Shown here one piece after another: positions 6,455 to 63,958 of a DNA stretch of 64,000 nt (its first letter is position 1; each line of letters starts with the position of its first letter). A model generated the notes under the pieces. That model saw nothing but the letters and a program-made list of their open reading frames with translations, did not search any database and was not told the origin of the DNA. The DNA is taken from positions 960,001-1,024,000 of the forward strand of contig CAWIXE010000002.1 in NCBI GenBank assembly GCA_963840035.1, given 5' to 3'. This DNA is from a candidate division FCPU426 bacterium. Lineage in GTDB: Bacteria > Oederibacteriota > PGYV01 > Palsa-1178. The position numbers were made by a program, and so were the translations under genes.

Positions 6455-6532
6455 GGGACACGGGGAGACAAGAGACCAGAGACAAGAGTAAACACCACAA
6501 TTCTTATCTTCTGTCTCCTTTCTCTATTCCCT
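6455..6532. repeat. 7-bp-period degenerate array with inverted partner arm (RGAGACM)
   Basis: ggagaca agagacc agagaca agagtaa ... tcttatc ttctgtc tcctttc tctattc; abuts the stop codon at 6533. Confidence 0.6.
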
Positions 6533-7990
6533 TTACTTATTCATCATATTTGTCAGGTCCTGTATTTTTCCCAGCATTTCCGCGGCTTTAATATTTGTCG
6601 GGTCAACGGCGAGGATGCTTTCGTACCATTTTTTTGCGTCCAGGTATTTACGGTTTTCAATTTCCTTCGCGCCGTTATCCATGTACTCCTTTATCTTCGC
6701 GTCTGTGATCCCCGGGTAAATTTTTTCCGCATCTTTTATCATTGCCAGGCCTATCTGCGTCATCCCTTTTAGTATATATGCCGCCGCGTCGTCGAACTTC
6801 AGCCCGGCCGCCCTGCGGTCAACGGCAAGGTGTATGTCTGACGCCAGTTTGTCCGTTTTCGGGTCGCCTTTTTTGTTTTCCTGCAGCAGTTTTACCTCAG
6901 CCTGCGCTTTATCTATTTTACCCGTGTTAAAATCATTAAGGGCTGTCAGGTAAAGCTGTCCATAAGACATCGCCTCCATGCCCTCGGTTAACCTTTCCTT
7001 ATCTTTTGAAAGGACGAATTTATCCTGTAGCAGCCTTTTTTCCCTTTCAGTCGGCACTTCCCCGAAGCGCGCCGTGACGCCGAAATTATGCACCACACCC
7101 GACGCGTTGAACGCGGCCGCGTAATCCAGGGTGAAGTTCTCTGTCGTAATGCCGCCGCCCGCAGTAAAGCTCTCGCTGTTTACGCCTCCCCTCACCGCGA
7201 TAAAATCAAAAGGCCTGAATTCCGCCCCGCCTGAATACCTTATGTATGACTGGCCTTTGCCCGCCGAAAAATCCCTGCCGTCGGAGAGAAGATTGATAAA
7301 AAGAGCATCGCCTGTAATGGCAACCCTTGAGTTTAAAAGATATAACGCCCCTCCCGCGCGCATATTCATCGGATAAAGCTCCACAGTGCTTCCTGTCTTA
7401 AGCTGCGGCTGTGTCACGTTTATCAGCGAGGCTGATGCCTTAAATACGCCGCCGAAATCATAGGAAGCGCCCGCGTCCAGGCCGAATCCGTTCGCGTTAT
7501 AAGTGTCAAAAGAGCGGGTAATGAGCTTAATCGTCATGCCAAACGAGAGCGAGCTCGTCACGGGATATGCGTACGTAAGCATGTATGCATCACTCCTGTC
7601 TGAAAAATCCCCGGTCTTGATACCCTCGCCGTTAATCCTTTCCACGCCTTCCACCCCCAGCTCAACCCTGGAAAAGGCCATCATGCCGTACTCCATGACA
7701 GGAAGGGCAAAACTTAAGACATTAAAATTTACCCCTTCTAGCGGCGACATATAATAAAAAGTAACCTCTGTATTCTTGACACAAGTTATCAGGGCAGGAT
7801 TAAAGTACGCTCCTGACGCGTCAAAGCAGTCTGCCGATGCGGAGTTTGCCATGCCGGCCGACCTTGCGCCGGAACCGCCCGAGTACAGGAACCCGCCTGC
7901 CGCGCCTCCGTCATAAGATACAGCAATCGCGGCTGCGGCCGCAGAAACAATGATACATGCCGTAAGAAATGATACGATTAATTTTTTCAT
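6533..7990 (-). CDS. PorV/PorQ (UPF0164)-family outer-membrane barrel with C-terminal TPR
   Basis: GSGARSAGMANS...DASGAYFNPALI, GFGLDAG, LDYA motifs; TPR-like C-terminus. Confidence 0.8.
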   Translation of the reverse strand: MKKLIVSFLTACIIVSAAAAAIAVSYDGGAAGGFLYSGGSGARSAGMANSASADCFDASGAYFNPALITCVKNTEVTFYYMSPLEGVNFNVLSFALPVMEYGMMAFSRVELGVEGVERINGEGIKTGDFSDRSDAYMLTYAYPVTSSLSFGMTIKLITRSFDTYNANGFGLDAGASYDFGGVFKASASLINVTQPQLKTGSTVELYPMNMRAGGALYLLNSRVAITGDALFINLLSDGRDFSAGKGQSYIRYSGGAEFRPFDFIAVRGGVNSESFTAGGGITTENFTLDYAAAFNASGVVHNFGVTARFGEVPTEREKRLLQDKFVLSKDKERLTEGMEAMSYGQLYLTALNDFNTGKIDKAQAEVKLLQENKKGDPKTDKLASDIHLAVDRRAAGLKFDDAAAYILKGMTQIGLAMIKDAEKIYPGITDAKIKEYMDNGAKEIENRKYLDAKKWYESILAVDPTNIKAAEMLGKIQDLTNMMNK

Positions 7991-7998
7991 GTCTCCCC

Positions 7999-11103: not shown

Positions 11104-11284
11104 AGTAACCCCTCCCGATAAATTGAATCAGCATTTGGATGTATTAAAATAAGCGAAGTTTTAGCATTATTTAGGATGCCGGAGTTTTAGCAATTTGAGC
11201 GTGTAGGTTTGAATTTGTTACAGACTAATTATATCATATGTTTTCCCTTTTTCCAGTTAATGTCAGCCGGCAGTAAAATCCGTC

Positions 11285-11356: not shown

Positions 11357-13615
11357 ATGGTCAAAGAACATATCAAAAATAAGGTTAAAGAACAGACTGA
11401 ATTGCCGGGAAACAGGATTGTCATATGGTGCGACAGGCTAATATTCTGGCTCCTTCTTGCTACAGTTTTTATAATACCCATCTATTTTAATATTTATTCC
11501 TTTGACCAGTTCGAGATGCCCAAACTCACGCTTTTACGCCTTTTGACCTGCGCCATGCTCGCTTTATGGGCTGTAAAAACTTTTGAAACCGGCAAATTTG
11601 AATTTACCCCTACGCCGCTCGACTTCCCTCTTATCGCATGGGTTGTAATGAACATAGTGACCACAGTATCAAGCTTCGCGCCGGCTTTAAGTTTCAGGGG
11701 TGAATATGAGAATTTCGCGGGTTCGCTTTCAAACATCAACTACGTCATAATCTATTACTTAGCGGTTAATGCAGTTAAAGACAAAAAACACCTTACGGCA
11801 CTGACGTTATCCGCGATGCTCTCCGGTGTTTTTGTCACGTTATACGCAACCGCGCAGTATTTTGGCTTTGATTTCATAAAATGGAACGAAGGCTCCATGA
11901 TACAGGGCCGTTATTTCGCCTCCATGGGCAACCCCAATTTTCTGGGCGCGTTCCTCATAATGATAATTCCCTTCTATGCCGCGTATTTCATTACAAACCT
12001 GAGGTCAAAAAAGTATTCCATGCTCGTCATGCTTGGCATTATGTTCATTCTCTCATACATCGCGCTTGTGGGCACGCAGAGCCGCGGGCCGTTCCTCGGT
12101 TTCATAGCGTCAATCCTGGCACTGCTTGCGTACTGGATGTATAACCAGTACAAAGATAAATCCGTCCAGCCTGAGTTTTCCGGCAAACCTTTTAAGGATG
12201 TATTTATGGCGGGCTTCTTTTCAAATAAAAGGCTCATAGCAACCGCACTTTCGGTAATACTGGTCGCCGGCGTTTTAAGCGCCACATTCGGCAGGGACGC
12301 CACAAAAAGGATCTGGAACACATTAACGCACTTAAATGAAAGTTTTTCCACTTCCCGCCTCCATATATGGCTGCCTGCGCTGAAGATAATAAAGGAATAC
12401 CCTGTTTTCGGAACCGGGGTTGACACATTTAAAACCGTCTTCCCTAAATTTGAAGGCGTTGATTTCGCGCAGATAGACGGCGCCAATGTCTCCTCAAGGA
12501 CGGCGCATAACGAACTCTTAAACATCGGCGCGACCATGGGTTTAACTTCGCTTGGCATATACCTTCTGCTTATAACAGCTTTCCTTCTTGCCTGGATATC
12601 ATCACATAAGCGCCTGACTGACCCTGACCTTAAACTTATTTCAATGGCTGTTATTTCAGCCTTTACAGCCTACTTTGTGCAGAACCTCTTTTCTTTCGGC
12701 GTCGCTGCCATAAACACGCTTCTTTATGTACTTTTCGCCGTACAGATGTATTTATATAACAGCGGCTACGGAGTTAAACAGCGCGCCATAACCCTTCTAA
12801 AAACAGGCGGCAACGGTTTTGCCGTTGCTAAAACATTACTGCAGGCCGTTTCCATAGCCGTATTCCTGTATGCCGGTTATATGGCATACTCCATTTACAG
12901 CGCGGATGTGCACTACAACCGCGGTAAAATTTACGGCAACTACAAAAACGACTGGAAAAACGCCGTAACAGAACACATCGAATCGGTAAAGGAAGCTCCG
13001 GGAGAGGTTAAATACCCTGTTTACCTCGGCCTGGCTTATGAGAGATATGCAAATCAGATAACTGATAAACCCGCCCAGATACAATTACTGCATAAAGCCC
13101 TGGACGCGTACAGCGAAGGGGTAAAACTTAATTCCGGAAACTCCTATTACTGGGGAAACCTCGGCAGGACCTATTTCCTCCTGGCCAAGGCGGAAAACCC
13201 GTCATACCTGGAGCAGGCCATACAGAGCTACAGGACCGCCATAGAAAAAGCGCCGGTTACAGGCATCTTTTACAATAACCTGATAGAAATATATCTGGCT
13301 GTAGGCTCGATGGAGAACGCCATGCCGCTTATTCAACAGCTAACAATATATGATAAAAAGCTCGCCGCAAATTCATACTTCATGCTCGGCAACTTCTATT
13401 TTGGCAAAAGGAACCTTGCTGAAGCTGAAGTAGCCTATAGAAAATCACTCGAAATGGACCCGGACCTTACGCAGTCATATTACAATCTGGGTATTGTATG
13501 CGCGGAAAGACGCGATAAAGAATGCGTGAAGTACTGCATGGAGACATTCCTGGCGAAAGCGCCTGATACGGAGATGTCTCCGAAGGCGCGGGAGATTTTA
13601 GGGCGGTTTAGGTAG
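11357..13615 (+). CDS. O-antigen ligase/O-oligosaccharyltransferase (Wzy_C) family protein with TPRs
   Basis: SMGNPNFLG, TQSRG, R..IW...P.FGTG..TF, AHNE motifs; about 12 TM helices; C-terminal TPRs. Confidence 0.85.
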   Translation: MVKEHIKNKVKEQTELPGNRIVIWCDRLIFWLLLATVFIIPIYFNIYSFDQFEMPKLTLLRLLTCAMLALWAVKTFETGKFEFTPTPLDFPLIAWVVMNIVTTVSSFAPALSFRGEYENFAGSLSNINYVIIYYLAVNAVKDKKHLTALTLSAMLSGVFVTLYATAQYFGFDFIKWNEGSMIQGRYFASMGNPNFLGAFLIMIIPFYAAYFITNLRSKKYSMLVMLGIMFILSYIALVGTQSRGPFLGFIASILALLAYWMYNQYKDKSVQPEFSGKPFKDVFMAGFFSNKRLIATALSVILVAGVLSATFGRDATKRIWNTLTHLNESFSTSRLHIWLPALKIIKEYPVFGTGVDTFKTVFPKFEGVDFAQIDGANVSSRTAHNELLNIGATMGLTSLGIYLLLITAFLLAWISSHKRLTDPDLKLISMAVISAFTAYFVQNLFSFGVAAINTLLYVLFAVQMYLYNSGYGVKQRAITLLKTGGNGFAVAKTLLQAVSIAVFLYAGYMAYSIYSADVHYNRGKIYGNYKNDWKNAVTEHIESVKEAPGEVKYPVYLGLAYERYANQITDKPAQIQLLHKALDAYSEGVKLNSGNSYYWGNLGRTYFLLAKAENPSYLEQAIQSYRTAIEKAPVTGIFYNNLIEIYLAVGSMENAMPLIQQLTIYDKKLAANSYFMLGNFYFGKRNLAEAEVAYRKSLEMDPDLTQSYYNLGIVCAERRDKECVKYCMETFLAKAPDTEMSPKAREILGRFR

Positions 13616-13619: not shown

Positions 13620-13704
13620 AAACCTTAACCCTTATCCTTATCCTTAGCCTGTAGACCTAAAGTCTAAGAGCTAAGGTTAAGGGTAAGGGTTTAGGGTTAA
13701 GGTA
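13620..13704. repeat. 6-bp-period inverted array (TAAGGG/CCTTAN)
   Basis: aacctt aaccct tatcct tatcct tagcct ... aggtta agggta agggtt tagggt taaggt. Confidence 0.8.
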
Positions 13705-15185: not shown

Positions 15186-15216
15186 ATTTTCGATTCTAAA
15201 TTTTCAATTTTCGATT
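15186..15216. repeat. 7-bp-period array (ATTTTCR)
   Basis: attttcg attctaa attttca attttcg att. Confidence 0.65.
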
Positions 15217-15251: not shown

Positions 15252-15282
15252 TGCCTTGCGCAGCCTGAAGGATGCGGCTACC
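15252..15282. repeat. GTAG-type REP, family C (single copy)
   Basis: tgccttgcgcagcctgaaggatgcggctacc; direct repeat of 17262-17292. Confidence 0.8.
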
Positions 15283-15290
15283 AGCGTATT

Positions 15291-17189: not shown

Positions 17190-17216
17190 AAGGCACCTGA
17201 GCATATGTATTTAGTC

Positions 17217-17294
17217 CCGGTAGCCGCAGCCTTCAGGTTGCGAAAGGCCGGCATCAGATCCTGCCTTGCGCAGCCTGAAGGCTGCGGCTGCCGG
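17217..17294. repeat. GTAG-type REPIN, family C (inverted REP doublet)
   Basis: ccggtagccgcagccttcaggttgcg ... cgcagcctgaaggctgcggctgccgg. Confidence 0.85.
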
Positions 17295-17305
17295 CATTAT
17301 GACAA

Positions 17306-19082: not shown

Positions 19083-19203
19083 ACCAATATCCAATATACT
19101 TTTAGCCATTAATAATGTATCGCTTTGCGATTTAATTATAATAAACCGCGGGATTTATCCCGCGAACCTAATATATTGGCCAAATGTTTATTGGCTATTG
19201 GCT
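19083..19203. repeat. 7-bp inverted arms (CCAATAT / CTATTGG) enclosing a cgcggga-ttta-tcccgcg hairpin
   Basis: ccaatat ccaatat ... aaaccgcgggatttatcccgcg ... atattgg ... ttattgg ctattgg. Confidence 0.55.
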
Positions 19204-19207
19204 GTAT

Positions 19208-22492: not shown

Positions 22493-22611
22493 AGTCTCAA
22501 TGATCTCAGTAGTCTCAGTGATCTCAATAGTCAAAACAATCTAAACCGCTAAACAACACACCAGTTATACGTTCTATTTCTGCCACTCACCATCCACAAA
22601 TCACTACCCAC
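22493..22611. repeat. 9-bp-period array plus a separate 7-bp-period array
   Basis: agtctcaat gatctcagt agtctcagt gatctcaat agtc (22493-22532); ccactca ccatcca caaatca ctaccca (22583-22610) abutting the xseB stop. Confidence 0.7.
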
Positions 22612-22911
22612 TTATTTGAACAACCCTCCATCGCCTTCCTCTTCATCTTCCTCATCTACTTTTGCCTTTTTTGTTTCTTTTTCCTCTTCCCCGCCAAAAT
22701 CTTCAGTTTCATAGCCTTTCTCAGTCTTCTTTTTCAGCAGTTCTATCTTGAGCTTCTTTTCCTTGAGAATTTCCCTGCATCTCTCTATAAGTTTCATTCC
22801 CTTTTCATATAACTCTATTGAGGCGTCAAGGTCAGCCTCGCCTGATTCAAGCTTATCAACAACGGTTTCAAGCTCGTTTAAATGCCCTTCAAACCCGGTT
22901 TCTTTTTTCAT
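22612..22911 (-). CDS. xseB: Exodeoxyribonuclease VII small subunit
   Basis: FE..L.ELE.VV.KLESGE..L..SI.LYEKG; acidic tail. Confidence 0.92.
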   Translation of the reverse strand: MKKETGFEGHLNELETVVDKLESGEADLDASIELYEKGMKLIERCREILKEKKLKIELLKKKTEKGYETEDFGGEEEKETKKAKVDEEDEEEGDGGLFK

Positions 22912-22941: not shown

Positions 22942-22972
22942 AATTGAAAATTGAAAATATTAAATTGAAAAT
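22942..22972. repeat. 7-bp-period array (AATTGAA)
   Basis: aattgaa aattgaa aatatta aattgaa aat. Confidence 0.75.
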
Positions 22973-25575: not shown

Positions 25576-25605
25576 ATTGACAATTGACAATGGCCAATTG
25601 ACAAT
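25576..25605. repeat. 7-bp-period array (ATTGACA)
   Basis: attgaca attgaca atggcca attgaca at; abuts the tgt stop. Confidence 0.8.
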
Positions 25606-27805
<2,200 letters not shown>

Positions 27806-27820
27806 GAAACCTCCGAAACA

Positions 27821-27908
27821 AATTTTGAATTTTCAATTTTGAATTTTAAATTGAAGGCAAAAAAACTCTTGGTTGTAATTGAAAATTGAAAATATAAAAT
27901 TGAAAATT
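27821..27908. repeat. 7-bp-period inverted array (AATTTTN / NAAAATT)
   Basis: aattttg aattttc aattttg aatttta ... aattgaa aattgaa aatataa aattgaa aatt. Confidence 0.85.
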
Positions 27909-28734: not shown

Positions 28735-28765
28735 TATTAGTATTAGTCATTAGTAATTGGTAATT
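28735..28765. repeat. 7-bp-period array (ATTAGTN)
   Basis: tattagt attagtc attagta attggta att. Confidence 0.7.
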
Positions 28766-28778
28766 TGTTTCAAGTGAA

Positions 28779-30995: not shown

Positions 30996-33555
30996 TTATT
31001 TTATCTGAGCAATCCATATCCTTGAAGCGCCGGGTGAAGGCATCCAGAAATCACTCCATGATATATAAGCAAGCACCTGTCCGTCATTTGACCAGGCCGG
31101 TGATTCTCCATAGAACTCGTACGGCAGAAGCGTCCACTTTTCCGCTCCGATGGCGTGTACGACTTTTACGTTTGTGACCGGGTTTATGAAATACGGAGCC
31201 TGATATGTCTCGTCAAAAGCCATTCTCTTTCCCTCGTTATCCCATGTCAGGTGATTGATGCTTCCTAAGGCAGTGTAAAGGTACATCGGCTGGGTTGCGT
31301 CGCTGTTTACAACCCATAATTCCTCCATATTAATTGTCCTGTCATACCACATGGATGGAATTTCCTTCTTCTTTACTATGAAAGCAACGCGCTCAGAATT
31401 AGGCGCCCATTCTATCTCCGTAATCGCGTGCTTTCCGGTGTACATCCTGGTCTTCAAGTCGCCATTCTTATCAAGCCGCCACAGCGCGCTTTCCTTTTTG
31501 TAATTAGCCCCGGTGACGACGTACTTGCCGTCATATGACCACTTTGGCTGTGCGAGCGTCTCGCATGTTTCCTGGAATATTTTTTTGTTCTTCTTTCCAT
31601 TGGGGTTTATGGTGAATATTTTCCAGATGTTGCCTGAATCAGTGAACTCCAGGGTTACCTGCTTCCTGCCGGCTGTCAGCCAGAATTTCGACGGTGTGAG
31701 CGTCTCCCTTGAGAGGTCTTTCTGGTTGGTTGTATTCGCGTTCATAATGACGAACTTGCCTTTTTTTACATATATGACCTTTGATTCGTCCGAGTTCCAA
31801 AGCGGAAAAAGGTCTTTATCTTTCTTGCGTGTGACATCCAGCGGCCTGGCGTTCTTGCCGTCTATGTCAGCAATCTTTAAATATGTATAACTGTCTGTCT
31901 TGGTGACATACAGAAGCTTATCACCCGCAGGCGACCATAACGGCATCAGCTTGCTCTCGCCTTTCGTGATCTGGTCTATGGACTGCTCCACAGTATCGGA
32001 AACCCACAGGTTCAGCCTGTCTTTTGAATCCGGCGCGTCAAATACAAAGCGCTTGCCATCAGGCGACCATGCGGTCTTATGCGTTAAAGGCGCGCAGGCC
32101 TTATCAATGATTACATTGAAATCCGCAAGCAGCGTCTTTGGCTTTCCCACCGGCAGGTTAAGTTTGTCTTTTTCCTCGTTCTTTTTTGCAAGATATATGG
32201 CTTTTTTATCAGGATTCATCTCGAGGAGTTTTTCAGCCTCTATCTCTTCAGCGGTCATTTTAACAACAACCGTGTTTGACTCGTCATCCTCTTCTATCTC
32301 AGGTTTCTTTTCCTTCTTTTCATCCCTGCTTAAGAGGGATATCTGCAGCGACACGCCCCATATGGACCTGGGCCCGTTTTCTTCTTCGCCCGCCGTAAAT
32401 ACAAGGAAGTTACCTTTTTTATTCCAGACCGGCGGGTCTATGTATTGCGGAAGTTTAAGTTCAGCCGTTGCGGAATTACCTTCAGGGTCGGTAAGCGTCC
32501 TGAGTTTTTCTCCAAGATTATATTCTATTTTTTCCTGCTGGCTTTTTGACACAGGCAGGTTCAGATTATACGACTGCCCTGTTATTTCCGCGTTCTCATC
32601 CGGCGGCAATGTTGTCATTCCGATGGAAAGAGCGTTCATTATATTGACTGAGCCTGATTTTTTCTTTTTATCGAACATGTCAAAGGCAAATGACCATGAA
32701 TCCCCTGACCAGCTTAAGTTGGCGGGCTTGTACTTGTACGAAGGCGTAATCTTGCCGAAGGTCATGACATCAAGCGGTTTCTCGTAAAAAATAGTGGCCG
32801 CGTACGCGAAGATGGCCAGAAAAAGAAGCACTATAGTTGAAATGGCTGTTATCCTGGTAGGATACCTGTCATCGTCTTTAAGCGGGTCCTTGGTAACAGA
32901 CATCATCACAAGTATGATGGCCGCCAATGCAAGAACAAAACTTGGGATAACAAAGTAGAAAATGAAACGCAGCTGCTGCCAGGAATATGAGCACCGCGCC
33001 GATGAACATATAAATGTCGGCAAGTATCTTTTCCTTGTTTTTCCTGACGTAAATCACAAAATCAATGGTAAAGAGCACAACAAAAACGCCCAAAGCGCCC
33101 AACAAAATGTACTTGTTTATGGTCATAGAGAACCTGTTAAAGAACTCCACGCCAAACACGCCTGCCAGCACCAGAAATACCGATGCCATGATGAATTTGG
33201 AAAGGAGTGATATGTTTTGCGGGTCTTTGCTGAATTTTTTCGCTATGCTTATATCGATGAAAACCGAGATTGCCAGCGCGAGCGCGCCCAATACCGCGGG
33301 AAGCGGTATGAATTCCTGGCCTTTGACGCCGAATACTATGCCGGCGAGTCCCGCTATCATAAGGATGAATTTAAAGACCGTAAAGAATATCCTGGTATCG
33401 AGGACCGACTGCTTTAACGCCTCATCCAGGTTCTTCGGCTCAGGCTCCGCGGCCTCGGGCGCTGTTGCCTCGCCTTCCGCGGGCGCCGCCTTTTGCTCGG
33501 CCGCGTCAAGCGGGTTCGGGGTTATATCTTTTGGTCCTTTTTCATTCTCAGCCAT
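30996..33555 (-). CDS. Multi-TM membrane protein with TolB-like (PD40) beta-propeller; apparent +1 frameshift at about 32966
   Basis: ORF 32878-33567 (TM helices) joins ORF 30996-33023 (WSPDGK, WSPAGD, WSYDGK, WSNDG repeats) if one T is removed; GGAGG before ATG 33555. Confidence 0.75.
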
Positions 33556-33587
33556 GATTGCCTCCAAGTGTTGTTATATTAAATTAA

Positions 33588-33636
33588 GTGCTATGTGCCG
33601 TGTGGCGCGTGCTAAGTGGTACGTGGTACGCGGCTT
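33588..33636. repeat. 7-bp-period array (GTGSTAN)
   Basis: gtgctat gtgccgt gtggcgc gtgctaa gtggtac gtggtac gcggctt. Confidence 0.75.
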
Positions 33637-33651
33637 GCGCCGGATACCATC

Positions 33652-34645: not shown

Positions 34646-34719
34646 GAATAATAAAGAAAAAGCAATGGGCTATGAACTAAAGCTATGTGTACTGTTAACA
34701 TGTTCTATTTAAAGTCTAT

Positions 34720-34879
34720 GTTTGTCATTGCGAGGAGGCGTTTTTGTAATTTGCCGACGAAGTCCTTCGACTTCGCTCAGGACCATGAGCCTGTCGAATG
34801 GCAATCCCGCTGTTCCAGAAGGAGAAAACGCGATTGCTTCGTCGCCATAAGTCAACTACGGTTCCTCGCAATGACAAAC
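34720..34879. repeat. Composite REP-like element, family A (copy 1)
   Basis: 17-bp terminal inverted repeat gtttgtcattgcgagga/tcctcgcaatgacaaac; internal hairpins; second copy at 50617-50765. Confidence 0.9.
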
Positions 34880-34967
34880 TGTAAACATATTTTTTTAATA
34901 TTATAAGTATACGCCATGAATAAAAAATCATTGTATTAACTAATTGCTCATAGCTTATCGCTTAATA

Positions 34968-36824: not shown

Positions 36825-36881
36825 ATAAACACCTCTCCCTTTTTTTATATATTAACATGAAAAACGGGGGGTGTAAAGACC

Positions 36882-36954
36882 ATTGACAATTGTTGATTGA
36901 CGATTGACAATTAATTACTACAACAATCAAAAAAGCAATTGTCAATTGTCAATT
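36882..36954. repeat. 7-bp-period inverted array (ATTGACA / TGTCAAT)
   Basis: attgaca attgttg attgacg attgaca att ... aattgtc aattgtc aatt; the arm contains the PilZ gene's TGA stop. Confidence 0.8.
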
Positions 36955-37362
36955 ACTTTCTGGATTTAACAAATAATTCCACACCGACTCAAACTGGTTC
37001 TTGAAATATGCCTCCATGTAACGCCTTTCTTCTTCAGTCATTGCCGCGAATTCGAGGCCTATGCTGTACTGCATGCTTTCTTCGCCAAGGAATATGTGCC
37101 CGTTCCACACTACCTCGCAAACCGCGTGTATTTCCTTTCCGTCAAGGATAAAATCCACCCTTAATATGTCGCCGGGCTGGAACTTGTCATAGGTAAGGAT
37201 GCCTATGCCGCCTTCCGAGATATCATGGCCTTTGGCTTTTACAAACTGTTCATGTTCGACCGCTTCAGCGCCCATCCTTAAGATTTTGTATTTAACATCC
37301 CTGTTCATCGGAAGCCTTTGCGCCTTTCTTCTCTCTTTTAACATAAGGTCCATAGAATCCAC
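36949..37362 (-). CDS. PilZ-domain (c-di-GMP receptor) protein
   Basis: ERRKAQRL (RxxxR) and DISEGG (DxSxxG). Confidence 0.9.
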   Translation of the reverse strand: MDSMDLMLKERRKAQRLPMNRDVKYKILRMGAEAVEHEQFVKAKGHDISEGGIGILTYDKFQPGDILRVDFILDGKEIHAVCEVVWNGHIFLGEESMQYSIGLEFAAMTEEERRYMEAYFKNQFESVWNYLLNPESN

Positions 37363-39471: not shown

Positions 39472-41610
39472 TTAAAAATTATAGGTTAATGATATTCCCA
39501 CATTTTCCATATCCAGCATGGGCGCAAACCCTATCTTATTTTCCTTTGCTATTCTTTCGCTTCTGTTGGTATAAACCGCGTTGTAAACCGCGGTATAGCC
39601 GGGCGCGGAAGCCACATCAGCAAGATATGAAATTCCAAATAAAGCAATACCCGCATAGCGCATAAAATCCTGCGTCGTATTCCCTGTTTTTGTCCCCGGG
39701 TTGGCGAGGTATAACACCGCGCCAAGCGCTTCAACGCCTGCCAGAGTAAACGCCGTTGAATAATTTTCCGCGTAAAAATTACCCGCGCCATGCGCGAGCA
39801 GTCCGGGGCCGGCCGCTATTAAAAACGCGATGCCCGGTTCCTTTTCATCTTTCTTTTCCGTTACCTTATACGGGCTGTTCGGGCAAAGAAGCTGTTTGTA
39901 ATATTCCGAATTGACATTATCGGTATGCAGCAGCGAGCCATAAAGGTCTATGCACCTCATGACGGTGTAAACGCCGATTGCGGAATACATAAAACCCTGC
40001 GCGATCTTTTTATTATCATCGCCGGCTTTTCCGTTATAAATCATTCCCACCCCGTATGTAATGCCCGTTAAAATCGGCGTGGCAATAAGCAGCTTAAGCG
40101 CTGTCTCGTTATCGCCCGCCCACCAGTGCCCTGCTCCGGGAATAATTCCGGCGGTAAGCGAGAATACGGAAGTAAGGGCCGGGTCTTTGTATTCCACCCT
40201 TTCCTTTTCAACTTTAAGCTCCATCGTTTTTATCTTATTAAGGTACAGCTCCGCGTTCTCGGTTGCCACAAAAGGAGCCGTGACATAATCAGTCAAAAGC
40301 CCCGCCGCCATCATGCCGGCTCCTGCTGACATAAGCGCGTAATCGGATTTTTCCGTATTTTCAAATTTACCGTTGATTATGGCGCCGGCCGTGATAAGCA
40401 TGCCGCCCACTATGGTAAGCGACGAAGACGCGGGCGTCCATGTCTGCAGCCTGCTCCGCGAATAGAAATTACCGAACCCGGCGTAAAGCAGGTTTATGGG
40501 AAAAAGGTCTATGTACGAAAACATATGGGCCGAGAAAGGCGATTTAAACTCCTCATCAACATTCCTCCCCGCGTAAATCTTGTCCATACCCGCCGCGTGC
40601 GACGCCTCAAGTTTTGTGAGGTATGACGCGGTGGAAACATCGCCCGGATTATAAGACAGGTATTTTTTATAGAAAACTATTGCCTGCTCTTTATTGCCGA
40701 AAGAAACATAACAGTTGCCGAGGCGCTGATACGCCTGGTATATGCCCGCGTTGAGTTTTACAACCTCGGAATAGGCGTAGAATGCCTGCTTGTAGTTGCG
40801 CTGAGATTCCAGGGCCAGCCCTTTTTTATAATACTCCTGCGCCTTTGCCTTATTATCGTCAACCGGCGCTATTTTACCCGCTTCTTCAGCCAGTTTTTTA
40901 TTTTGTTCTTCAAGTTTTTTCGCGTTTTCCTGCTGTTTTTTCTCGCTCTCGCGCTGCTGCTCTTCAAGCTGTTTCTGAGCGTCCTTCTGCTGCTGTTCAT
41001 ACTGGCGCTGCTGTTCCTCGGTGCGTTTCTTCGCGTCCTGCTGCTGTTGTTCATACTGACGCTTCTGTTCCTCAGTACGGTTTTTGGCGTCCTGTTGCTG
41101 CTGTTCGTACTGGCGTTTCTGTTCTTCAGTACGGTTCTTCGCGTCTTTCTGCTGCTGTTCATACTGCCGTTGCTGCTCTTCAGTTCGTTTTTTTGCGTCC
41201 TGTACCTGCTGTTCATTCTTTCGTTTCTGTTCTTCAGCCTGTTTCTTAGCTTCATTTAAGCGCTCTTCATAGCGTTTCTGGCTGTCATCAGCCGCCATTT
41301 TTGAGTCTTTATTCTTCTGTTCGACAGCCTTTAACTGTTCTTCCTTTTTTGCCTTCAGCGCTTCCTGATTCTTTTTATAGGCTTCCTGCCTTGCTTTATA
41401 ATCAGCAAGCTTCTTATTATAAGCCTGCTGTGTAGCCTGCGCCACTGCCGCCTTTATCTTAGAAACTACAGGCTTTACAGTTTTGACTGGAACCGCTTTA
41501 ACCGCAGGTTTAACCGTAGGTATTGCCGTAGGCTTAACCGTAGAAGCAGCCGCTCCAAAGAGCATATTTGCCGAAGCCAAAAGCACAATTAGCAGTATAT
41601 ATTTTCTCAT
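39472..41610 (-). CDS. Exported protein: 18-aa-repeat coiled coil, TPRs, repeated hydrophobic hairpin domains
   Basis: Signal peptide; DAK.RTEEQ.RQYEQQQ repeats; TPR; three (P)GxG(H/N)(F/W)(Y/W) modules; ends ISLTYNF. Confidence 0.75.
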   Translation of the reverse strand: MRKYILLIVLLASANMLFGAAASTVKPTAIPTVKPAVKAVPVKTVKPVVSKIKAAVAQATQQAYNKKLADYKARQEAYKKNQEALKAKKEEQLKAVEQKNKDSKMAADDSQKRYEERLNEAKKQAEEQKRKNEQQVQDAKKRTEEQQRQYEQQQKDAKNRTEEQKRQYEQQQQDAKNRTEEQKRQYEQQQQDAKKRTEEQQRQYEQQQKDAQKQLEEQQRESEKKQQENAKKLEEQNKKLAEEAGKIAPVDDNKAKAQEYYKKGLALESQRNYKQAFYAYSEVVKLNAGIYQAYQRLGNCYVSFGNKEQAIVFYKKYLSYNPGDVSTASYLTKLEASHAAGMDKIYAGRNVDEEFKSPFSAHMFSYIDLFPINLLYAGFGNFYSRSRLQTWTPASSSLTIVGGMLITAGAIINGKFENTEKSDYALMSAGAGMMAAGLLTDYVTAPFVATENAELYLNKIKTMELKVEKERVEYKDPALTSVFSLTAGIIPGAGHWWAGDNETALKLLIATPILTGITYGVGMIYNGKAGDDNKKIAQGFMYSAIGVYTVMRCIDLYGSLLHTDNVNSEYYKQLLCPNSPYKVTEKKDEKEPGIAFLIAAGPGLLAHGAGNFYAENYSTAFTLAGVEALGAVLYLANPGTKTGNTTQDFMRYAGIALFGISYLADVASAPGYTAVYNAVYTNRSERIAKENKIGFAPMLDMENVGISLTYNF
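40960..41250. repeat. Intragenic 54-bp tandem repeat
   Basis: Encodes about five QDAKNRTEEQKRQYEQQQ-like units. Confidence 0.85.
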
Positions 41611-42253: not shown

Positions 42254-42429
42254 TTCTCCTTTTTCCCCAATAAAACAATTATATTTTATCACGTCTTACA
42301 TATATTAGTCAATTTTTAACCAAATTAGTTCCGTTTAAAAGCCCAATCGTAAATCAACAACAAACAACTTCGCAGCACTTATGCTTTTCCATTATATGCC
42401 CGCACAAGCAACAAAATAGTCAGGTTTTC

Positions 42430-42493
42430 GTAGAGACACAGCTTGCTGTGTCTCGCCTTTCAACGTCTGAGACGCAGCAAGCTGCGTCTCTAC
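42430..42493. repeat. GTAG-type REPIN, family B (copy 1)
   Basis: gtagagacacagcttgctgtgtctc-gcctttcaacgtct-gagacgcagcaagctgcgtctctac, 64 bp. Confidence 0.9.
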
Positions 42494-43202: not shown

Positions 43203-43245
43203 ATCGCCTTCCTATTCATCTTTGTATTATAAGAATCACAAACCT

Positions 43246-43309
43246 GTAGAGACACAGCTTGCTGTGTCTCGCCCTTCAACGTCTGAGACGCAGCAAGCCG
43301 CGTCTCTAC
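43246..43309. repeat. GTAG-type REPIN, family B (copy 2)
   Basis: 62/64 identical to 42430-42493, same orientation. Confidence 0.9.
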
Positions 43310-43324
43310 AAAAAACAGAACAGG

Positions 43325-48399: not shown

Positions 48400-48492
48400 A
48401 GCTTAAAACTGAAAGCTTAAAACTGAAAATTGAGTCAAAACCGGACTTGAAATATTATTTCATTTTCAGTTTTCAGCTTTAAACTTTAAATT
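48400..48492. repeat. 7-bp-period inverted array (ARCTKAA / TTMAGYT)
   Basis: agcttaa aactgaa agcttaa aactgaa aattga ... tttcatt ttcagtt ttcagct ttaaact ttaaatt. Confidence 0.85.
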
Positions 48493-48496
48493 TGTC

Positions 48497-49685: not shown

Positions 49686-49717
49686 AATTTTCAATTTTAA
49701 ATTTTATATTTTCAATT
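49686..49717. repeat. 7-bp-period array (AATTTTN)
   Basis: aattttc aatttta aatttta tattttc aatt. Confidence 0.75.
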
Positions 49718-50579: not shown

Positions 50580-50616
50580 TTCGCTCCTTATAAAATTACA
50601 CTCATTTTCTCAGCCA

Positions 50617-50765
50617 GTCATTGCGATGAGGCGCCTATTACTTCGCCGACAAAGTCCTTCGACTTCGCTCAGGGCCATGAGCCTGTCGAATGGCAATCTG
50701 GCTGTTTTAGAACTTAAACCAGATTGCTTCGTCGCCATAAATCAAATACGGCTCCTCGCAATGAC
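50617..50765. repeat. Composite REP-like element, family A (copy 2)
   Basis: gtcattgcga...tcgcaatgac ends; same internal ccttcgacttcgctcagg..catgagcctgtcgaatgg module as 34720-34879. Confidence 0.9.
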
Positions 50766-50788
50766 AGTCCTTAACATTCACGCCATGC

Positions 50789-53868: not shown

Positions 53869-53883
53869 AACGTTCTCCTTCTT

Positions 53884-53950
53884 GGTAACCGCAACCTTTA
53901 GGCCGCGATACCGGGTATATTTTGTCCGCAGGCTGAAGCCTGCGACTACC
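53884..53950. repeat. Degenerate family C REPIN
   Basis: ggtaaccgcaacctttaggccgcg ... cgcaggctgaagcctgcgactacc. Confidence 0.7.
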
Positions 53951-53966
53951 GGAATTTAATGTATAA

Positions 53967-54728: not shown

Positions 54729-54746
54729 GAAGACTCCTCAATGATC

Positions 54747-54864
54747 GGGAATGGGGAATTGGGAATGGGGAATGGCAGACATAACATCCAGCCACAAACC
54801 CAAAAACCAAATCCTTACGCCCTTTATTATTGCCATTCCCTATTGCCCATTCCCTATTCCCCAC
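54747..54864. repeat. 7-bp-period inverted array (GGGAATG / CATTCCC) with a second heptamer run inside
   Basis: gggaatg gggaatt gggaatg gggaatg ... ccacaaa cccaaaa accaaat ... ccattcc ctattgc ccattcc ctattcc ccac; abuts the dapB stop. Confidence 0.9.
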
Positions 54865-55644: not shown

Positions 55645-55661
55645 AAAATCCTCCTTGTTAG

Positions 55662-55731
55662 TTCAAAGCCCAGAGACCAAAGCTCAAGTAAAACCTGACT
55701 TGGGCTTTTTAACCTTGAGCTATGGGCTTGA
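55662..55731. repeat. 7-bp-period inverted array (CYCAAAG / CTTTGRG-like)
   Basis: ttcaaag cccagag accaaag ctcaag ... cttggg ... ccttgag ctatggg cttga; ends 1 bp from the dapA stop. Confidence 0.75.
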
Positions 55732-56611: not shown

Positions 56612-56625
56612 GATAGACCTCCAGA

Positions 56626-56654
56626 AATTTTCAATTTTATATTTTCAATTTTCT
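56626..56654. repeat. 7-bp-period array (AATTTTN)
   Basis: aattttc aatttta tattttc aattttc; next to the dapF stop. Confidence 0.75.
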
Positions 56655-56655
56655 A

Positions 56656-57468
56656 TTACCATTTTAATGCTTCAGGACCCGCCATGCCTTCGGCTACAAC
56701 CCTTGCGTTACCTTCAAGAAAAACATCATTAATTATGCCGCCGTTATCCTTGAAATATATCGTCAGTTTTCCGCCTTTGGCAAAGAGCGTTACCGGCGAT
56801 TTTGCCACGCCGTTTAAATACAGCGCGATGCCCGCGGCTGTCGCGCCTGTGCCGCACGCGTAAGTTTCAGCTTCCACTCCGCGCTCATACGTCCTTATGG
56901 CGAATGAATTCTTGCCTGTTTTCTGGACAAAATTTACGTTTGTGCCCTTAGGGCCGAACACCCTGTGAAACCTGAGCATCCTTCCCGTCTTTGCCACATC
57001 AACTTTTTTTATATCCTTAACCGGCACCACAAAATGCGGCACTCCGGTATTCATGAAAGCGCCTTCCACTCCGCCCGCTGTAACCGCTTTTTTTATGTCA
57101 AAAGGGTCTGTCATGCCAAGTTTCACTTCTCCGTTGGGCTTTACCTGGGCCGTATGCGGCCCGTCATTGGCCATGAACTTAACCGTCGTTCCGGAGTATC
57201 CCTTCAGGTAAGAGAACCTGGAAATGCACCTCGCGCCGTTTCCGCACATGTCAGCTTCTTTGCCGTTGTTGTTATAAAACTTCATGGTAAAATCAAATCC
57301 CTTTGAAGGCTTATTCAAAAGTATAAGCCCGTCAGCGCCTATGGAAAACCTGTTAGCGCAGAGCGCGGCTATTTCCTTAGCGGAAAGTTTTATCTTCCCC
57401 TTGTAATTGTCTATCACTATAAAATCATTCCCGTTGCCGGACATCTTGGTGAAGCGCAGTTCTTTCAT
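56656..57468 (-). CDS. dapF: Diaminopimelate epimerase
   Basis: KM.G.GNDF, MCGNGARC, GVPH, YERGVE.ET.ACGTG. Confidence 0.97.
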   Translation of the reverse strand: MKELRFTKMSGNGNDFIVIDNYKGKIKLSAKEIAALCANRFSIGADGLILLNKPSKGFDFTMKFYNNNGKEADMCGNGARCISRFSYLKGYSGTTVKFMANDGPHTAQVKPNGEVKLGMTDPFDIKKAVTAGGVEGAFMNTGVPHFVVPVKDIKKVDVAKTGRMLRFHRVFGPKGTNVNFVQKTGKNSFAIRTYERGVEAETYACGTGATAAGIALYLNGVAKSPVTLFAKGGKLTIYFKDNGGIINDVFLEGNARVVAEGMAGPEALKW

Positions 57469-57481
57469 GAATTACTCCTTT

Positions 57482-57565
57482 GATATTTGATATGCGATAT
57501 CGGATATTAGATATATATCCTTCTGCCTTCAACGTTTATATCTAATATCAAATATCCAATATCAC
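57482..57565. repeat. 7-bp-period inverted array (GATATNN / NNATATC)
   Basis: gatattt gatatgc gatatcg gatatta gatat ... atatcta atatcaa atatcca atatc. Confidence 0.9.
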
Positions 57566-57573
57566 ACATGCCC

Positions 57574-58882: not shown

Positions 58883-58900
58883 TTTATAGATATAATGGCT

Positions 58901-58932
58901 GATTCGGGATTCTGGATTCTAAATTCTGGATT
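58901..58932. repeat. 7-bp-period array (GATTCTR)
   Basis: gattcgg gattctg gattcta aattctg gatt. Confidence 0.75.
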
Positions 58933-59178: not shown

Positions 59179-59197
59179 CTTCTACGTGGTCTGTCTT

Positions 59198-59230: not shown

Positions 59231-59247
59231 AAATTTCAGGATTTGTT

Positions 59248-60123: not shown

Positions 60124-60194
60124 TACATTCCCTCCGTCTGAATAAAATCATATTTAAATCTTATCATGTACCGGCCAATAATCAATAATAAACA

Positions 60195-60965: not shown

Positions 60966-61120
60966 ATTTATTTTATGGTTTTATTATACCATTGTCAAAT
61001 ATACTTGTCTAAAACATTAATGTATAGCCGGGGTTTTATTTTCATGTTGAAAAACCGGGCAGATACTATATAATTAGAGTATATTATAAACGCTGTCAAA
61101 CATACTACCCCGAGGTGCTT

Positions 61121-61510
61121 ATGCCGGCAATTGACGACCCTGTTTCAAAGGTTAAGCTGGGATTCACCAGCGTCAATGGCAAAAGACTTTTCCGCGCCGA
61201 ACTTAACGATTACAAGGGAGAGAATTTTGACGAGCTGCTAGTTAGGGGCGGCAAATTCATAAGGAATGAACCTCCCGGTTCAGTGCTTTGTCTTTGTGTC
61301 TTTAACGACCATACGCCAATGGTCACCAATAAAAACGACATTTCCGAATATTTGAAGGCCAATAAACCCTACATAAAAGCCTCCGCAGCCTGCGGCTTTA
61401 ACAAATTCTTCACACCTATTTACAACGCTATCTTTTCCATATCCGGCAGGCAGGATATCAGGGTTTTCAGCAGTGAAAAAGAAGCCACCGACTGGCTCTT
61501 ATCACGGTAA
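61121..61510 (+). CDS. Hypothetical protein, STAS/SEC14 (SpoIIAA-like) fold suspected
   Basis: GAGGTG RBS; KPYIKASA..G and F.SEKEA.DWL C-terminal motif. Confidence 0.6.
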   Translation: MPAIDDPVSKVKLGFTSVNGKRLFRAELNDYKGENFDELLVRGGKFIRNEPPGSVLCLCVFNDHTPMVTNKNDISEYLKANKPYIKASAACGFNKFFTPIYNAIFSISGRQDIRVFSSEKEATDWLLSR

Positions 61511-61513
61511 AAT

Positions 61514-61545
61514 AAAAAGGGCGCGGTTTTACCCGCGCCCTTTTT
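61514..61545. terminator. Bidirectional intrinsic terminator
   Basis: A-tract gggcgcgg-tttta-cccgcgccc T-tract between convergent genes. Confidence 0.9.
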
Positions 61546-61555
61546 CATTTATACC

Positions 61556-63958
61556 TTAGATCATTTCGAACTTCAAAACAATCTCACCGGATACCGTGCC
61601 AAACCCTGCCTTTTCAAAGATCTTCCTGAGCGTCTCATTATCAGCGCCTTTTCCTTTATAACTTTTTACCGTTACAGACTTAACTTTGCCGTTCTCAACC
61701 CTGAGCTGTACTTCCAAACCTGTCAGCCCGTTATCCGCAAAGTACTTGTTCAGTTCATTCTTTATCTTCCCAAATACTTCAGTCTCAGCTTCATCCAGGG
61801 TATATCCGGCAGGCACACTGCCGTCGGAAATTGCGAGTGATGAGCCCGCATTTGCTGTTGCCGCATCGTCGGTAGAACTCTTATCCTTCTTCCCCCACGA
61901 ACCAAACCCCAGCTGAAGCTTTGATGACTCTTCTTTTTCTTCAGCCAAATCATACAGCGGTTCAGATGCCGGCGCGTTTGACATCATCTTCATGGCGCGC
62001 GTAGAACTTCCGCCGGAGTATCCTGAGTAATTGGCCGGAGCAGCCGCGGCCTGCAGCTGCGTCCCTACCGCATTATCGCTTACGCCTTCAGGCAGCGGGA
62101 GCGGCTGTTTTACAGTAACCACTTCGCCTGTTTCCCTGACCACTTTATCTACCGCTACAAAAGATGTGTAGGCTGTCATCAGATGGTACTTTAAGCCAAG
62201 CTCTGTCACTTCATCCTTAACATTCGCGCCCACTTTGGAGTAATCATCAAGCCTGGCCACTTTTTCGCGGGCCCAGAGGTACTTAATCGCTTCATTTCTC
62301 GGGTCCTGCTCATATCCGCCCATATTTATTACCTTTTCAAATTTTCCGTTTGCCGACATGCCGGTTACTATTATCCTGCCTGACGCGTGTTTATATTTGC
62401 CCGATATAACCAGAGGCCTCTGCGCGAAAAGGTCCGGGACTGATTCAGGTTCAACGTCATACGCGTCAAAGCCTTCATACTTTACCTTTATGTCCGTCAA
62501 TACAGGCGACTTTATGTAACTTATGAACTTATCAGCTGCTGCCTGCGCCTCGTCCTGCCCCGTTACAACGAACGGCTCGCCTTTTCCCATCCTTGCCATG
62601 CCTTCAATTAAAAACCTGTTCACGGATGTGCCGATGCCGAAAGAGAAAAAGTTTGCGCTGCCCATCTTTTTGGCCATCAGGTCAAAAACTTCCTTTTCAA
62701 CCGAGATGTAACCGTCCGTCATCGTAACAATAATGCGCGACATGCCTTCTTTTTTCGCCAGGCCTGAAGCCTTTGTAAAAGCCTCGAGTATTTCAGTGCC
62801 GCCCGAGCCTTCCTGTTTGGTTATCATCTCTATGGCTTTGTTCCTGTTATTGGATGTGGCAGGCATGGGTTTCTCAAAAAGCGTGTTTGACCCGCCGGCA
62901 AAGAACATGATATTGAAGTAGTCCTGTCCGCGCAGGTTTGAAAGTATTTCTTTAATGACTTTCTTGGATATTTCCAGCGGGAACCCGCTCATGGAGCCTG
63001 ATACGTCCATAATGAAGAGGTATTCCCTCGGAGGTATCATTGACGCTTCAACCTTTGCCGGAGGCTCTATCATGGTCAGGAAGAAGTTCTCATCCTGCCC
63101 CGGATAAAGAAGCACGCCGGTATTTATGGCATTGCCCCTGAGCGAATACTTAAGGATGAAATCCCTGTTGCCGCCGTTCTCTTCCTTGGGTGATAACGCG
63201 ACCTTCACGTTATTGCCGTCTGTAAAGTCGGTAATAATCTTGTGCGACGGCGACCATGCTTTCGCGACCATGATACCCGACTTGATATTCACGTTCATGC
63301 CGAATGTATACGGCGCAAGCTTGCCTTCGTGCTGATACGGATTAACCGTCCAGTTGTCCTTGCCTTTTAAGTCCTCAGTTGAAGACTCTCCGGTAAACCT
63401 GGGCCCCACAACCGTCGGAAAAATAAAGCCGTATTCGCCTGCGTCAGGTATGAGCGCTTCGGAATAGTAAACAGTCACTTCTACCTTATCACCGGGCATG
63501 ATGTTCGCCACGTTCATCTGGAAAACATTCGGCCTTTTCTGTTCCAGCAGCGATGCTGTCTTGCCCTGATTCTTTGCCGCTTCGTAAATCTGCCTTGCCT
63601 CTTCAGTTTTGTGGATGTCAGCTTCGATTATTCTGGTCCCTATCTGCATCCTCATGGCGTTAATCGCCGACTTGGTACCCAGAGGAAATACGTAAATCGC
63701 CTCTATGGTTTTCTTCCCGTCATTCTTATAAACCTGTTTGAGTTCGGTCTGAGCCACCATTCCCGCGATGCTCACATTAGCCGTAGTAGAAAGCAAAGGA
63801 AACCCCTCAACATCCCCCGCGCCCTGCACCAGGAAGTAAGGTGAAAGTGACTCCTTATCCTCCTTGGCAAAAAGACTAATCATGCTTAAAGCTAAAAACA
63901 CAACAACAAACAACAACACCTTAACCCTCATCCTTCCCCTTATCCTTAGCTGTTCCAT
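61556..63958 (-). CDS. Exported VIT (vault inter-alpha-trypsin) + vWA domain protein
   Basis: IEAIYVFPL, LLEQ.RPNVF, DVSGSMSG MIDAS, TDG, LWAR, YTSFVAVD; AGGAGG RBS before ATG 63958. Confidence 0.92.
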   Translation of the reverse strand: MEQLRIRGRMRVKVLLFVVVFLALSMISLFAKEDKESLSPYFLVQGAGDVEGFPLLSTTANVSIAGMVAQTELKQVYKNDGKKTIEAIYVFPLGTKSAINAMRMQIGTRIIEADIHKTEEARQIYEAAKNQGKTASLLEQKRPNVFQMNVANIMPGDKVEVTVYYSEALIPDAGEYGFIFPTVVGPRFTGESSTEDLKGKDNWTVNPYQHEGKLAPYTFGMNVNIKSGIMVAKAWSPSHKIITDFTDGNNVKVALSPKEENGGNRDFILKYSLRGNAINTGVLLYPGQDENFFLTMIEPPAKVEASMIPPREYLFIMDVSGSMSGFPLEISKKVIKEILSNLRGQDYFNIMFFAGGSNTLFEKPMPATSNNRNKAIEMITKQEGSGGTEILEAFTKASGLAKKEGMSRIIVTMTDGYISVEKEVFDLMAKKMGSANFFSFGIGTSVNRFLIEGMARMGKGEPFVVTGQDEAQAAADKFISYIKSPVLTDIKVKYEGFDAYDVEPESVPDLFAQRPLVISGKYKHASGRIIVTGMSANGKFEKVINMGGYEQDPRNEAIKYLWAREKVARLDDYSKVGANVKDEVTELGLKYHLMTAYTSFVAVDKVVRETGEVVTVKQPLPLPEGVSDNAVGTQLQAAAAPANYSGYSGGSSTRAMKMMSNAPASEPLYDLAEEKEESSKLQLGFGSWGKKDKSSTDDAATANAGSSLAISDGSVPAGYTLDEAETEVFGKIKNELNKYFADNGLTGLEVQLRVENGKVKSVTVKSYKGKGADNETLRKIFEKAGFGTVSGEIVLKFEMI
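63918..63950. repeat. 6-bp-period array (same family as 13620-13704) inside the VIT gene's signal peptide
   Basis: acctta accctc atcctt cccctt atcctt agc; encodes LRIRGRMRVKV on the minus strand. Confidence 0.6.

Follow-up and report, generated by a model that had tools for sequence, protein, structure and literature searches.

Degenerate heptamer arrays at gene junctions of an Oederibacteriota genome: possible non-autonomous elements of a TIGR02436 gene cassette

Array sites of the window

The window analysed here is a stretch of 64,000 nucleotides (nt) from a candidate division FCPU426 bacterium (Oederibacteriota) whose genome, 98% complete, comprises 3.46 Mb in three contigs (C1 to C3). 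It spans positions 960,001 to 1,024,000 of contig CAWIXE010000002.1, or G000:C2:960001-1024000 in the notation kept below for sites elsewhere in this genome (G000). Its genes are housekeeping genes, on the minus strand nearly throughout (lysA-dapF-dapA-dapB, pan genes, uvrA, tgt-yajC, xseAB, dxs, recN), and their junctions hold arrays of short degenerate tandem units, organised as single arms or as two inverted arms around a spacer. A first reading, made from the letters alone (the sequence-only reading), had described about 20 arrays of fixed geometry and diverse sequence, about half of them inverted pairs. This description agrees with the 20 sites that we count from 6464 to 63950, namely nine same-family inverted pairs, one hybrid and ten single arms. 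Period-7 arrays occupy 17 of the 36 intergenic segments of the window, against a mean of 0.12 (maximum 1) over 100 shuffles, and arrays of period 5, 8, 10 or 11 occupy none. Neither an Rfam match nor a tRNA gene was found in the window. The hybrid and the single arms are assigned to the minus strand, the pairs to neither strand; family numbers are those of the census described below.

Among the pairs, the one at 6464..6529 (GAGACAR family, family 5; fold z -2.8) lies between convergent genes. That at 13621..13702, of the 6-nt CCTTAT family (family 12; z -6.5), begins 5 nt past the stop codon of gene 11357-13615 and is followed by a separate terminator-like hairpin. The ATTTTCA family (family 24) forms a weakly folding pair (z -1.4) at 27820..27908, between an IclR-type gene and a GH5 gene, and the ATTGACA family (family 26) one at 36878..36954 (z -4.0), whose left arm overlaps the stop codon of gene 36949-37353. 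A pair of the ACTGAAA family (family 20; z -3.1) occupies the nadX / ABC gene junction at 48400..48493. Three further pairs lie in the dap region: GGGAATN family at the dapB / FAH junction (54744..54864; z -3.4), AGCCCAA family (family 11) at dapA / dapB (55660..55729) and GATATTN family (family 14) at lysA / dapF (57479..57566; z -4.0). The ninth pair (34664..34965), under the census threshold, has degenerate AGCTATG-type arms (34664-34689 and 34946-34965) around a long hairpin resembling repetitive extragenic palindromic (REP) sequences; because it encloses this hairpin, its spacer is about 256 nt and not within the 10-60 bp that had been proposed. Nine sites of the window were folded, six giving z below about -2.8 and three a weak value (z -1.2 to -1.7). 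A long hairpin of the GTCATTGCGAG type has two copies in the window (34690-34880, 50600-50770), one of them inside the degenerate heptamer pair.

Family 24 also supplies four single arms: right-type arms at 15186..15216 (with a REP-like hairpin upstream), at the panC / panD junction (49686..49717) and overlapping the dapF stop codon (56625..56657), and a left arm 6 nt past the xseA stop codon (22942..22972). A right-type arm of family 26 (25576..25606) overlaps the tgt stop codon and precedes yajC; a left-type arm of the ATTACTA family (family 6; 28742..28768) lies upstream of the IclR-type gene; a right-type arm of the GATTCTR family (family 22; 58901..58932) lies upstream of lysA, preceded by a terminator and a long hairpin. 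The right-type arm at 33586..33633, directly past the sppA stop codon, is of the GTGGTAW family (family 16), which is also that of a gene cassette at G000:C2:519599-520107. In the hybrid (22493..22612) a 7-nt left arm of family 15 (22583-22612) sits on the xseB stop codon and a 9-nt right arm of family 9 (22493-22532) precedes the ispA ribosome-binding site. This 9-nt arm and the 6-nt sites, two in number (13621-13702, 63919-63950), bear out the count of two 6-bp arrays and one 9-bp array made beforehand. The arrays had all been called intergenic, which holds for most sites; the 6-nt-family right-type arm at 63919..63950 is translated, lying within the first codons of the open reading frame (ORF) 61556-63958, and is not intergenic. 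The CTATTGG site directly past the dxs stop codon (19174..19204) is a weak array of two to three units under the census threshold.

Anatomy, placement and turnover across the genome

The periodicity scan that the sequence-only reading had called for gives period-7 arrays in 507 of the 2096 intergenic segments of the genome, against 3.4 in five dinucleotide shuffles, far above periods 5, 6 and 8 to 10. Periods 6 (36 segments against 2.2) and 9 (16 against 1.8) are weakly enriched; periods 5, 8 (7 against 2.8) and 10 barely. Genome-wide, 756 period-7 arrays are intergenic and 47 coding. Apart from the translated arm of the window, about 20 period-7 arrays lie well within called genes, such as a pair at G000:C1:988353, the gene calls being unverified ones of our own hexamer caller, which misses some small genes and misplaces some starts.

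For a census, 175 inverted pairs were clustered into 26 families and periodic profiles were built from them, at a threshold that 0 of 300 shuffled junctions and 110 of 300 real ones reached; the 22 families with at least two pairs were used and the four single-pair families left out. It yields 1127 arms, and 665 of 1866 junctions (36%, about a third) are armed. The 576 armed co-directional junctions comprise 258 same-family pairs, 166 left-only, 71 right-only, 30 hybrid and 51 stacked arrangements; none has a plain right-left order. Arms cover 9% of junction DNA. The spacer, with a median of 23 nt, is A-rich at its 5' end and T-rich at its 3' end. Adjacent armed junctions have a family in common more often than expected (78 against 49±6). 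One spacer family has 12 members, found in both orientations and across two arm families (G000:C1:775830, C1:780259, C1:689105, C3:38659, C3:39172 and seven more sites); its palindromic TATTATAATA core could serve as a two-way -10 box. At G000:C1:370600-371300 whole elements of the 6-nt family are stacked in tandem, in a manner like arrays of bacterial interspersed mosaic elements.

The elements have family-fixed polarity, and the number of cores per arm goes up to five at each of the periods 6, 7 and 9, with median arm lengths of 29 nt (period 6), 32 nt (largest period-7 family) and 40 nt (period 9). In the largest family, of 217 arms, 177 have five cores and three have six. The cores hardly vary, a core mismatch being absent from 180 of 193 five-core arms, and the linkers are drawn from a small vocabulary. 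An RRYY core is partly shared across families (45 of 61 units against 28 expected).

The two arms of one locus are not mirror copies of each other (1.03 against 0.90 of four units, p 0.20); within-locus identity is slightly higher in the largest family (0.871 against 0.856, p 0.011) and not in seven others. Mismatches between arms have no G·U bias, with 124 G·T and 105 A·C in 138 pairs, and 32 and 33 in 23 cassettes. The profiles of the left arm and of the reverse-complemented right arm are alike in nine of ten families (lowest p 0.007 in 43 position tests over nine families, family 16 being left out of these tests). Since the mismatches are unbiased, the arms are not mirror copies and the profiles are alike, we infer that each arm is read as a strand-symmetric row of sites and not as an RNA helix.

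Arms are placed at stop codons. The first arm begins at most 10 nt from the stop in 406 of 498 cases, much tighter than the REP-like repeats of the same genome (15 of 144), and where the junction is roomy, 35 of 46 pairs lie close to the stop, 4.5 being expected to do so. There is no preference for a stop-codon sequence (TAA in 261 of 412 against 995 of 1613).

Turnover between relatives is fast, with swaps of family. The dap junctions of 16 relatives are short for the most part, and any arrays there belong to a different family; no TIGR02436 gene (see below) lies at them. At dapA-dapB relatives have other families or nothing, and at lysA-dapF the 14 relatives with both genes have no array. 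The arm families at FAH-dapC differ between two genomes whose proteins are 93% alike, and in a comparison of two genomes 88% alike three junctions have arms in just one. The largest-family pattern has 129 matches here and, among 40 relatives searched, none in seven genomes of the same taxonomic family and seven in two other genomes of the order; it is present in distant phyla too. A metagenome search with DapB returned nothing closer than 80%. The comparison of orthologous junctions proposed by the sequence-only reading thus found the empty and family-swapped states; the filled state is another matter. Of 15 junctions that hold a gene cassette in relatives, 6 have arms in this genome, of other families as judged by eye, which is at the 36% background; a sixteenth was omitted, the relative's gene there being a degenerate homologue. 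This matching looked supportive at first and was dropped as evidence because it is at background level.

The TIGR02436 cassette and candidate mobilisers

Eight genes of the TIGR02436/PF05635 four-helix-bundle family exceed the curated cut-off in the genome. None of them, nor any other cognate enzyme, was found in the window, as had been noted from its sequence. Four are enclosed by inverted arms and lie between protein genes, three follow tRNA genes and have repeat hairpins upstream, and one is a long form without arms. Three of the four enclosed genes (G000:C2:519718, C1:780744, C1:786298) are flanked by the gene-less families 16, 1 and 21 in the gene-less polarity. Across the lineage an inverted repeat encloses 25 of 32 genes, a count that leaves out 19 rows of a tRNA-associated clade, three degenerate rows and the two halves of a split gene; of 150 small genes taken as controls, 5 are so enclosed. 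The link of such genes to such arms, proposed by the sequence-only reading, thus holds. When all genes between long-range arm pairs are listed, TIGR02436 and IS30 genes stand out, the others being housekeeping genes flanked by two independent elements.

The tRNA-associated genes form a separate clade, 14 of its 19 rows having a tRNA gene upstream, which none of the 37 other rows has. Its members (G000:C2:73399, C3:492520, C2:1127095 and relatives) have their repeat hairpins upstream of the gene and not around it, and the clade occurs also in genomes whose sampled DNA has no arrays. In another protein clade (support 100/97) all six rows have 8-nt arms, which are found also outside it; gene-less 8-nt arrays occur in three genomes of the genus (g9) that is the source of four of the six rows. 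The ratio of non-synonymous to synonymous substitution rates is 0.03-0.14 in three armed gene pairs. At one conserved junction a degenerate TIGR02436-like gene without arms is present in at least two relatives (L049, L039, L147), where this genome has other small genes (G000:C1:446911-447761).

Structures of PF05635 proteins have been solved and, to our knowledge, they have no known function. The model of the four-helix-bundle protein (predicted local distance difference test score 95) matches 2gsc (template modelling, TM, score 0.88), 2rld and Avd (TM 0.76), and Q41, S48, N52 and E78 are conserved. Both solved members of the family have five chains, and 2gsc is described as a homopentamer in a passage of PMC4990558. 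The protein is thus modelled with the fold of a known pentamer, and a pentamer is predicted to bind the arms.

Other candidate mobilisers were considered. The genome has 17 copies of IS30. All seven members of two groups are inserted within arms (five clear, two degenerate), at a core, with a 2-bp duplication and the 7-nt register intact on either side: group a at G000:C2:388087, C2:169442, C2:1276793 and C1:417165, and group b at C3:228238, C3:54916 and C2:827247. Their position inside arms with this duplication indicates that they arrived after the arms. The other two groups (G000:C2:187820, C2:585706, C1:160179, C2:940520; six group-d copies, e.g. C1:231511) touch an arm in 1 of 10 cases; they have long direct repeats of about 15 bp and appear, by eye, just upstream of promoter-like sequences. 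The arrays themselves were rejected as miniature inverted-repeat transposable elements of an insertion sequence family, identical arms being found in 0 of 32 pairs and flanking direct repeats measuring 2.87 nt against 2.91±0.05 nt. There are eight Y1 transposase matches, with arrays within -500/+900 nt of none; three of these genes adjoin GTAG-type repeats. Genes resembling REP-associated tyrosine transposases (RAYTs) with GTAG-type repeats lie elsewhere in the genome, and GTAG-type REP-like hairpins occur in the window at 15255-15290, 17205-17305, 42380-42480, 43240-43315 and 53869-53966. In 13 two-arm junctions that hold a REP-like element, the element is between the arms in eight. GxxExxY genes were found neither in this genome nor in any of 24 genomes of the order; in other orders of the phylum most of the 10 viewed (L268-L277) have, by eye, flanking inverted repeat arms, often of a period near 9. 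The genome has three DUF559 genes. One of them (G000:C2:1647905-1648596; L282), with CCCTCTCCC-type hairpins unrelated to the arms, fills a junction where the relative G001 has a four-helix-bundle cassette and is a parallel gene-plus-repeat system at the same site.

Unrelated to the arms, two surface or secreted proteins of the window contain coding tandem repeats (38115-38278 and 40951-41271; periods 30/60 and 54/108). The membrane-protein ORF at 32928-33560 (minus strand), beginning upstream of a tolB-like gene, may be frameshifted or fused, and ORF 33065-33655 on the plus strand looks spurious.

Known repeat systems and origin of the arrays

The system works like the REPIN-RAYT one, REPINs being doublets of REP sequences, without belonging to it. 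According to passages of PMC3337134, REPINs share with the present elements inverted doublets and singlets, unique spacers, several families per genome, family-fixed orientation, intergenic location and a small gene flanked by its own repeat family. Two inverted units around a variable spacer, together with singlets, are likewise found here. Doublets score 1.37 bits/nt against 1.31 and 1.23 for singlets (p 2e-5), a difference that may stem from the training of the profiles on doublets. In contrast, REPIN units are single imperfect palindromes, whereas the arms here are tandem 6-9-nt units with a maximum of five cores; the flanked gene is an HUH transposase there and TIGR02436 here; and hybrids, 30 here, are reported as none in SBW25 in the same passages. 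As REPIN spacers are unique too (PMC3337134), unique spacers do not exclude mobility.

Heptamers of Xanthomonas (GGGAATC) and Nostoc (GGGGA(C/T)T) also come mostly as four units near or over stop codons, and 70 inverted pairs of the GGGAATC repeat are described in Xanthomonas campestris pv. campestris (PMC4692102). The pair at 54744-54864 fits the Xanthomonas consensus GGGANTN. However, those repeats are interpreted as G-quadruplexes of one family, while at least 22 families of common anatomy are found here, and the passages of PMC4692102 concerned draw no link to a gene. Since G-runs are missing from the largest family, G-quadruplex formation fails as a general explanation. In Coxiella, the ORF-bearing intervening sequence of 23S rRNA has, in the part of PMC4990558 devoted to it, the same protein family (S23p/PF05635) in an inverted-repeat stem, with heptamers upstream of the ORF. 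Cassettes here lie in mRNA operons or after tRNA genes and not in rRNA genes, gene-less forms exceed them by more than 100 to 1, and there is no sign of RNA-helix selection, so that the system shares a gene with the rRNA intervening sequences without being one. The TAACTGA repeats of Beggiatoaceae, Cyanobacteria and Bacteroidetes, as presented in passages of PMC4679880, are also intergenic heptamers, in 2-6 copies, with a patchy, apparently horizontal spread and no known mechanism; they are described as perfect direct copies of a single word ahead of start codons, unlike the degenerate, paired arms of many families seen here. Avd, an accessory protein of diversity-generating retroelements (PDB 4dwl, 8ubb; passages of PMC10053308), has in common with the cassette protein its fold and, as proposed here, its service to an element that rewrites nucleic acid. 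The match of the latter to PF22296 (E 1.8e-5) is below the family cut-off; Avd serves a reverse transcriptase, whereas a search of this genome for PF00078 gave none, and the arms show no evident variation specific to adenines. In the literature within reach, most subscription journals being outside it, dispersed heptamer arms are linked to the TIGR02436 family only through the Coxiella intervening sequence. The GGGAATG and ATTGACA units presumably resemble STRR1 and STRR2, short tandemly repeated repetitive sequences of cyanobacteria.

We privilege the hypothesis, at a probability of roughly 0.6, that the arrays are REPIN-like non-autonomous elements served by the TIGR02436 four-helix-bundle cassette, whose protein would read the five cores as a pentamer. 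The arrays would be the gene-less members of a set of dispersed palindromic DNA elements, each having two inverted arms with up to five cores at a 6-9-nt spacing, and would have spread as non-autonomous partners of the cassette. One protomer of the five-subunit ring may contact one core; recognition would be of DNA, or at least strand-symmetric. Arms with five cores and no perfect runs would be the ones that get copied, and the end of translation, more than a target sequence, may guide insertion. Candidates for cutting and joining are the four-helix-bundle protein itself, through Q41, S48, N52 and E78, or a host enzyme recruited by it, by analogy with the service of its relative Avd to a reverse transcriptase.

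In most prokaryotic genomes rich in repeats, heptamers are the commonest of the long simple repeats, and their current explanation is polymerase slippage (proposed by Mrazek et al. 2007, as cited in PMC4679880). It would account for the few long perfect runs, such as one arm of 14 copies. Slippage predicts identical neighbours and a free copy number; here identical neighbouring units are rarer than expected (69 against 122.8±7.0) and fall under the within-arm shuffle mean in 11 of 12 families, perfect-repeat arms are 0 of 193 where 7-9 are expected, the core number stops at five and the partner arms are inverted and of the same family. It is therefore rejected as the origin, as the sequence-only reading had argued, and has next to no chance of being the explanation; as a few long perfect runs exist, it acts secondarily, once a run is perfect. 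The arrays are confirmed as real and genome-wide. In an alternative already raised by that reading, an array would be the footprint of a full cassette that inserted and then lost its gene, gene-less forms being immobile by themselves. Families, polarity and stop-proximal placement are those of cassettes, the spacers are mostly unique and resemble cassette leaders and trailers in their A-rich and T-rich ends, and 5 of 58 gene matches in relatives have internal stops. Yet there are four enclosed genes for 665 armed junctions, a search of 1866 junction sequences gave no gene remnant (best non-gene E 0.28), arms are at background frequency where relatives have filled junctions, and a gene-less spacer family stands at 12 loci in both orientations, which makes this origin unlikely.

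A structure-recognised RNA element had also been envisaged, in which arms would be maintained by the host as 3'-end hairpins (terminators, stabilisers, RNase III sites) or as binding sites of a regulator. The tight placement at stop codons, the excess of left-only arms on the mRNA strand (166 to 71, p 6e-10) and the good folding of several pairs are in its favour, as are the Xanthomonas repeats, mostly transcribed and with transcript ends at some (passages of PMC4692102), and the Coxiella stem, cut by RNase III at a heptamer (passages of PMC4990558). We hold it unlikely in view of the equal frequency of G·T and A·C mismatches, the lack of mirror copying between arms, the lack of conservation at orthologous junctions and the existence of at least 22 unrelated families; moreover, as intrinsic terminators the pairs are rejected, since at least five of the 8 nt that follow are T in just 26 of 265, and 169 of 258 occupy tight junctions of operons. 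The arms could also be made and moved by another mobiliser (RAYT, IS30 or an unknown host enzyme), with the four-helix-bundle gene as a passenger using them as safe sites. The genome does have Y1 and IS30 genes, no cognate cassette is found for the largest family, and GxxExxY genes elsewhere in the phylum have similar arms; however, no Y1 gene has arrays nearby and three stand beside GTAG-type repeats, IS30 is a later arrival, GxxExxY was found in none of 24 genomes of the order and the arm period tracks the protein clade, leaving this very unlikely.

Several observations weigh against the cassette-served origin that we prefer. No catalytic enzyme was found, the genome having no PF00078 and no Y1 gene beside arrays, and binding, excision and insertion are predicted steps. 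For the largest family, no cassette enclosed by its arms in the gene-less polarity turned up in 56 gene rows scanned, nor in 120 loci from other taxa, where two nearby genes had the opposite polarity, and 10 of the 22 families were matched by none of the arms around enclosed cassettes. Correlation across 16 related genomes is weak (rho 0.50, p 0.048), and it is inflated by the choice of some sampled contigs for the cassettes that they contain. Pair statistics (258 of 288 two-arm junctions of one family, 24 expected) are partly circular, since families and polarity were defined from pairs. Most spacers (98 of 124) have no partner and identical arms are just mildly enriched (148 against 88±26 pairs), so that recent copying of whole elements is not demonstrated. 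No target-site duplication was found at arm pairs; divergent junctions, which lack a stop codon, carry arms at about the rate of co-directional ones (40 of 129 against 576 of 1613); and in 12 of 15 cases the terminator is located between the arms, which simple insertion of a unit does not predict. Several families (5, 11, 17) end at three to four cores, and family 16 departs from strand symmetry, probably owing to its 14-copy run.

A wider and tentative proposal, to which we give somewhat less than even odds, is that of an undescribed class of mobile DNA without known transposase. A pentamer would count five cores per arm, with a clade-specific word and period, and gene-less hairpins would be planted behind stop codons, their arms put together one unit at a time from a limited vocabulary and not copied faithfully; bacterial heptamer repeats and ORF-bearing rRNA intervening sequences may then have a common source. 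The 1127 arms in 22 families suffice to reject slippage as origin and to state a rule, a maximum of five cores at any period. This rule turns the questions of the origin of heptamers and of the function of PF05635 proteins into one binding question. If true, cassette-linked spread would account for the surplus of 7-base repeats long noticed in bacteria.

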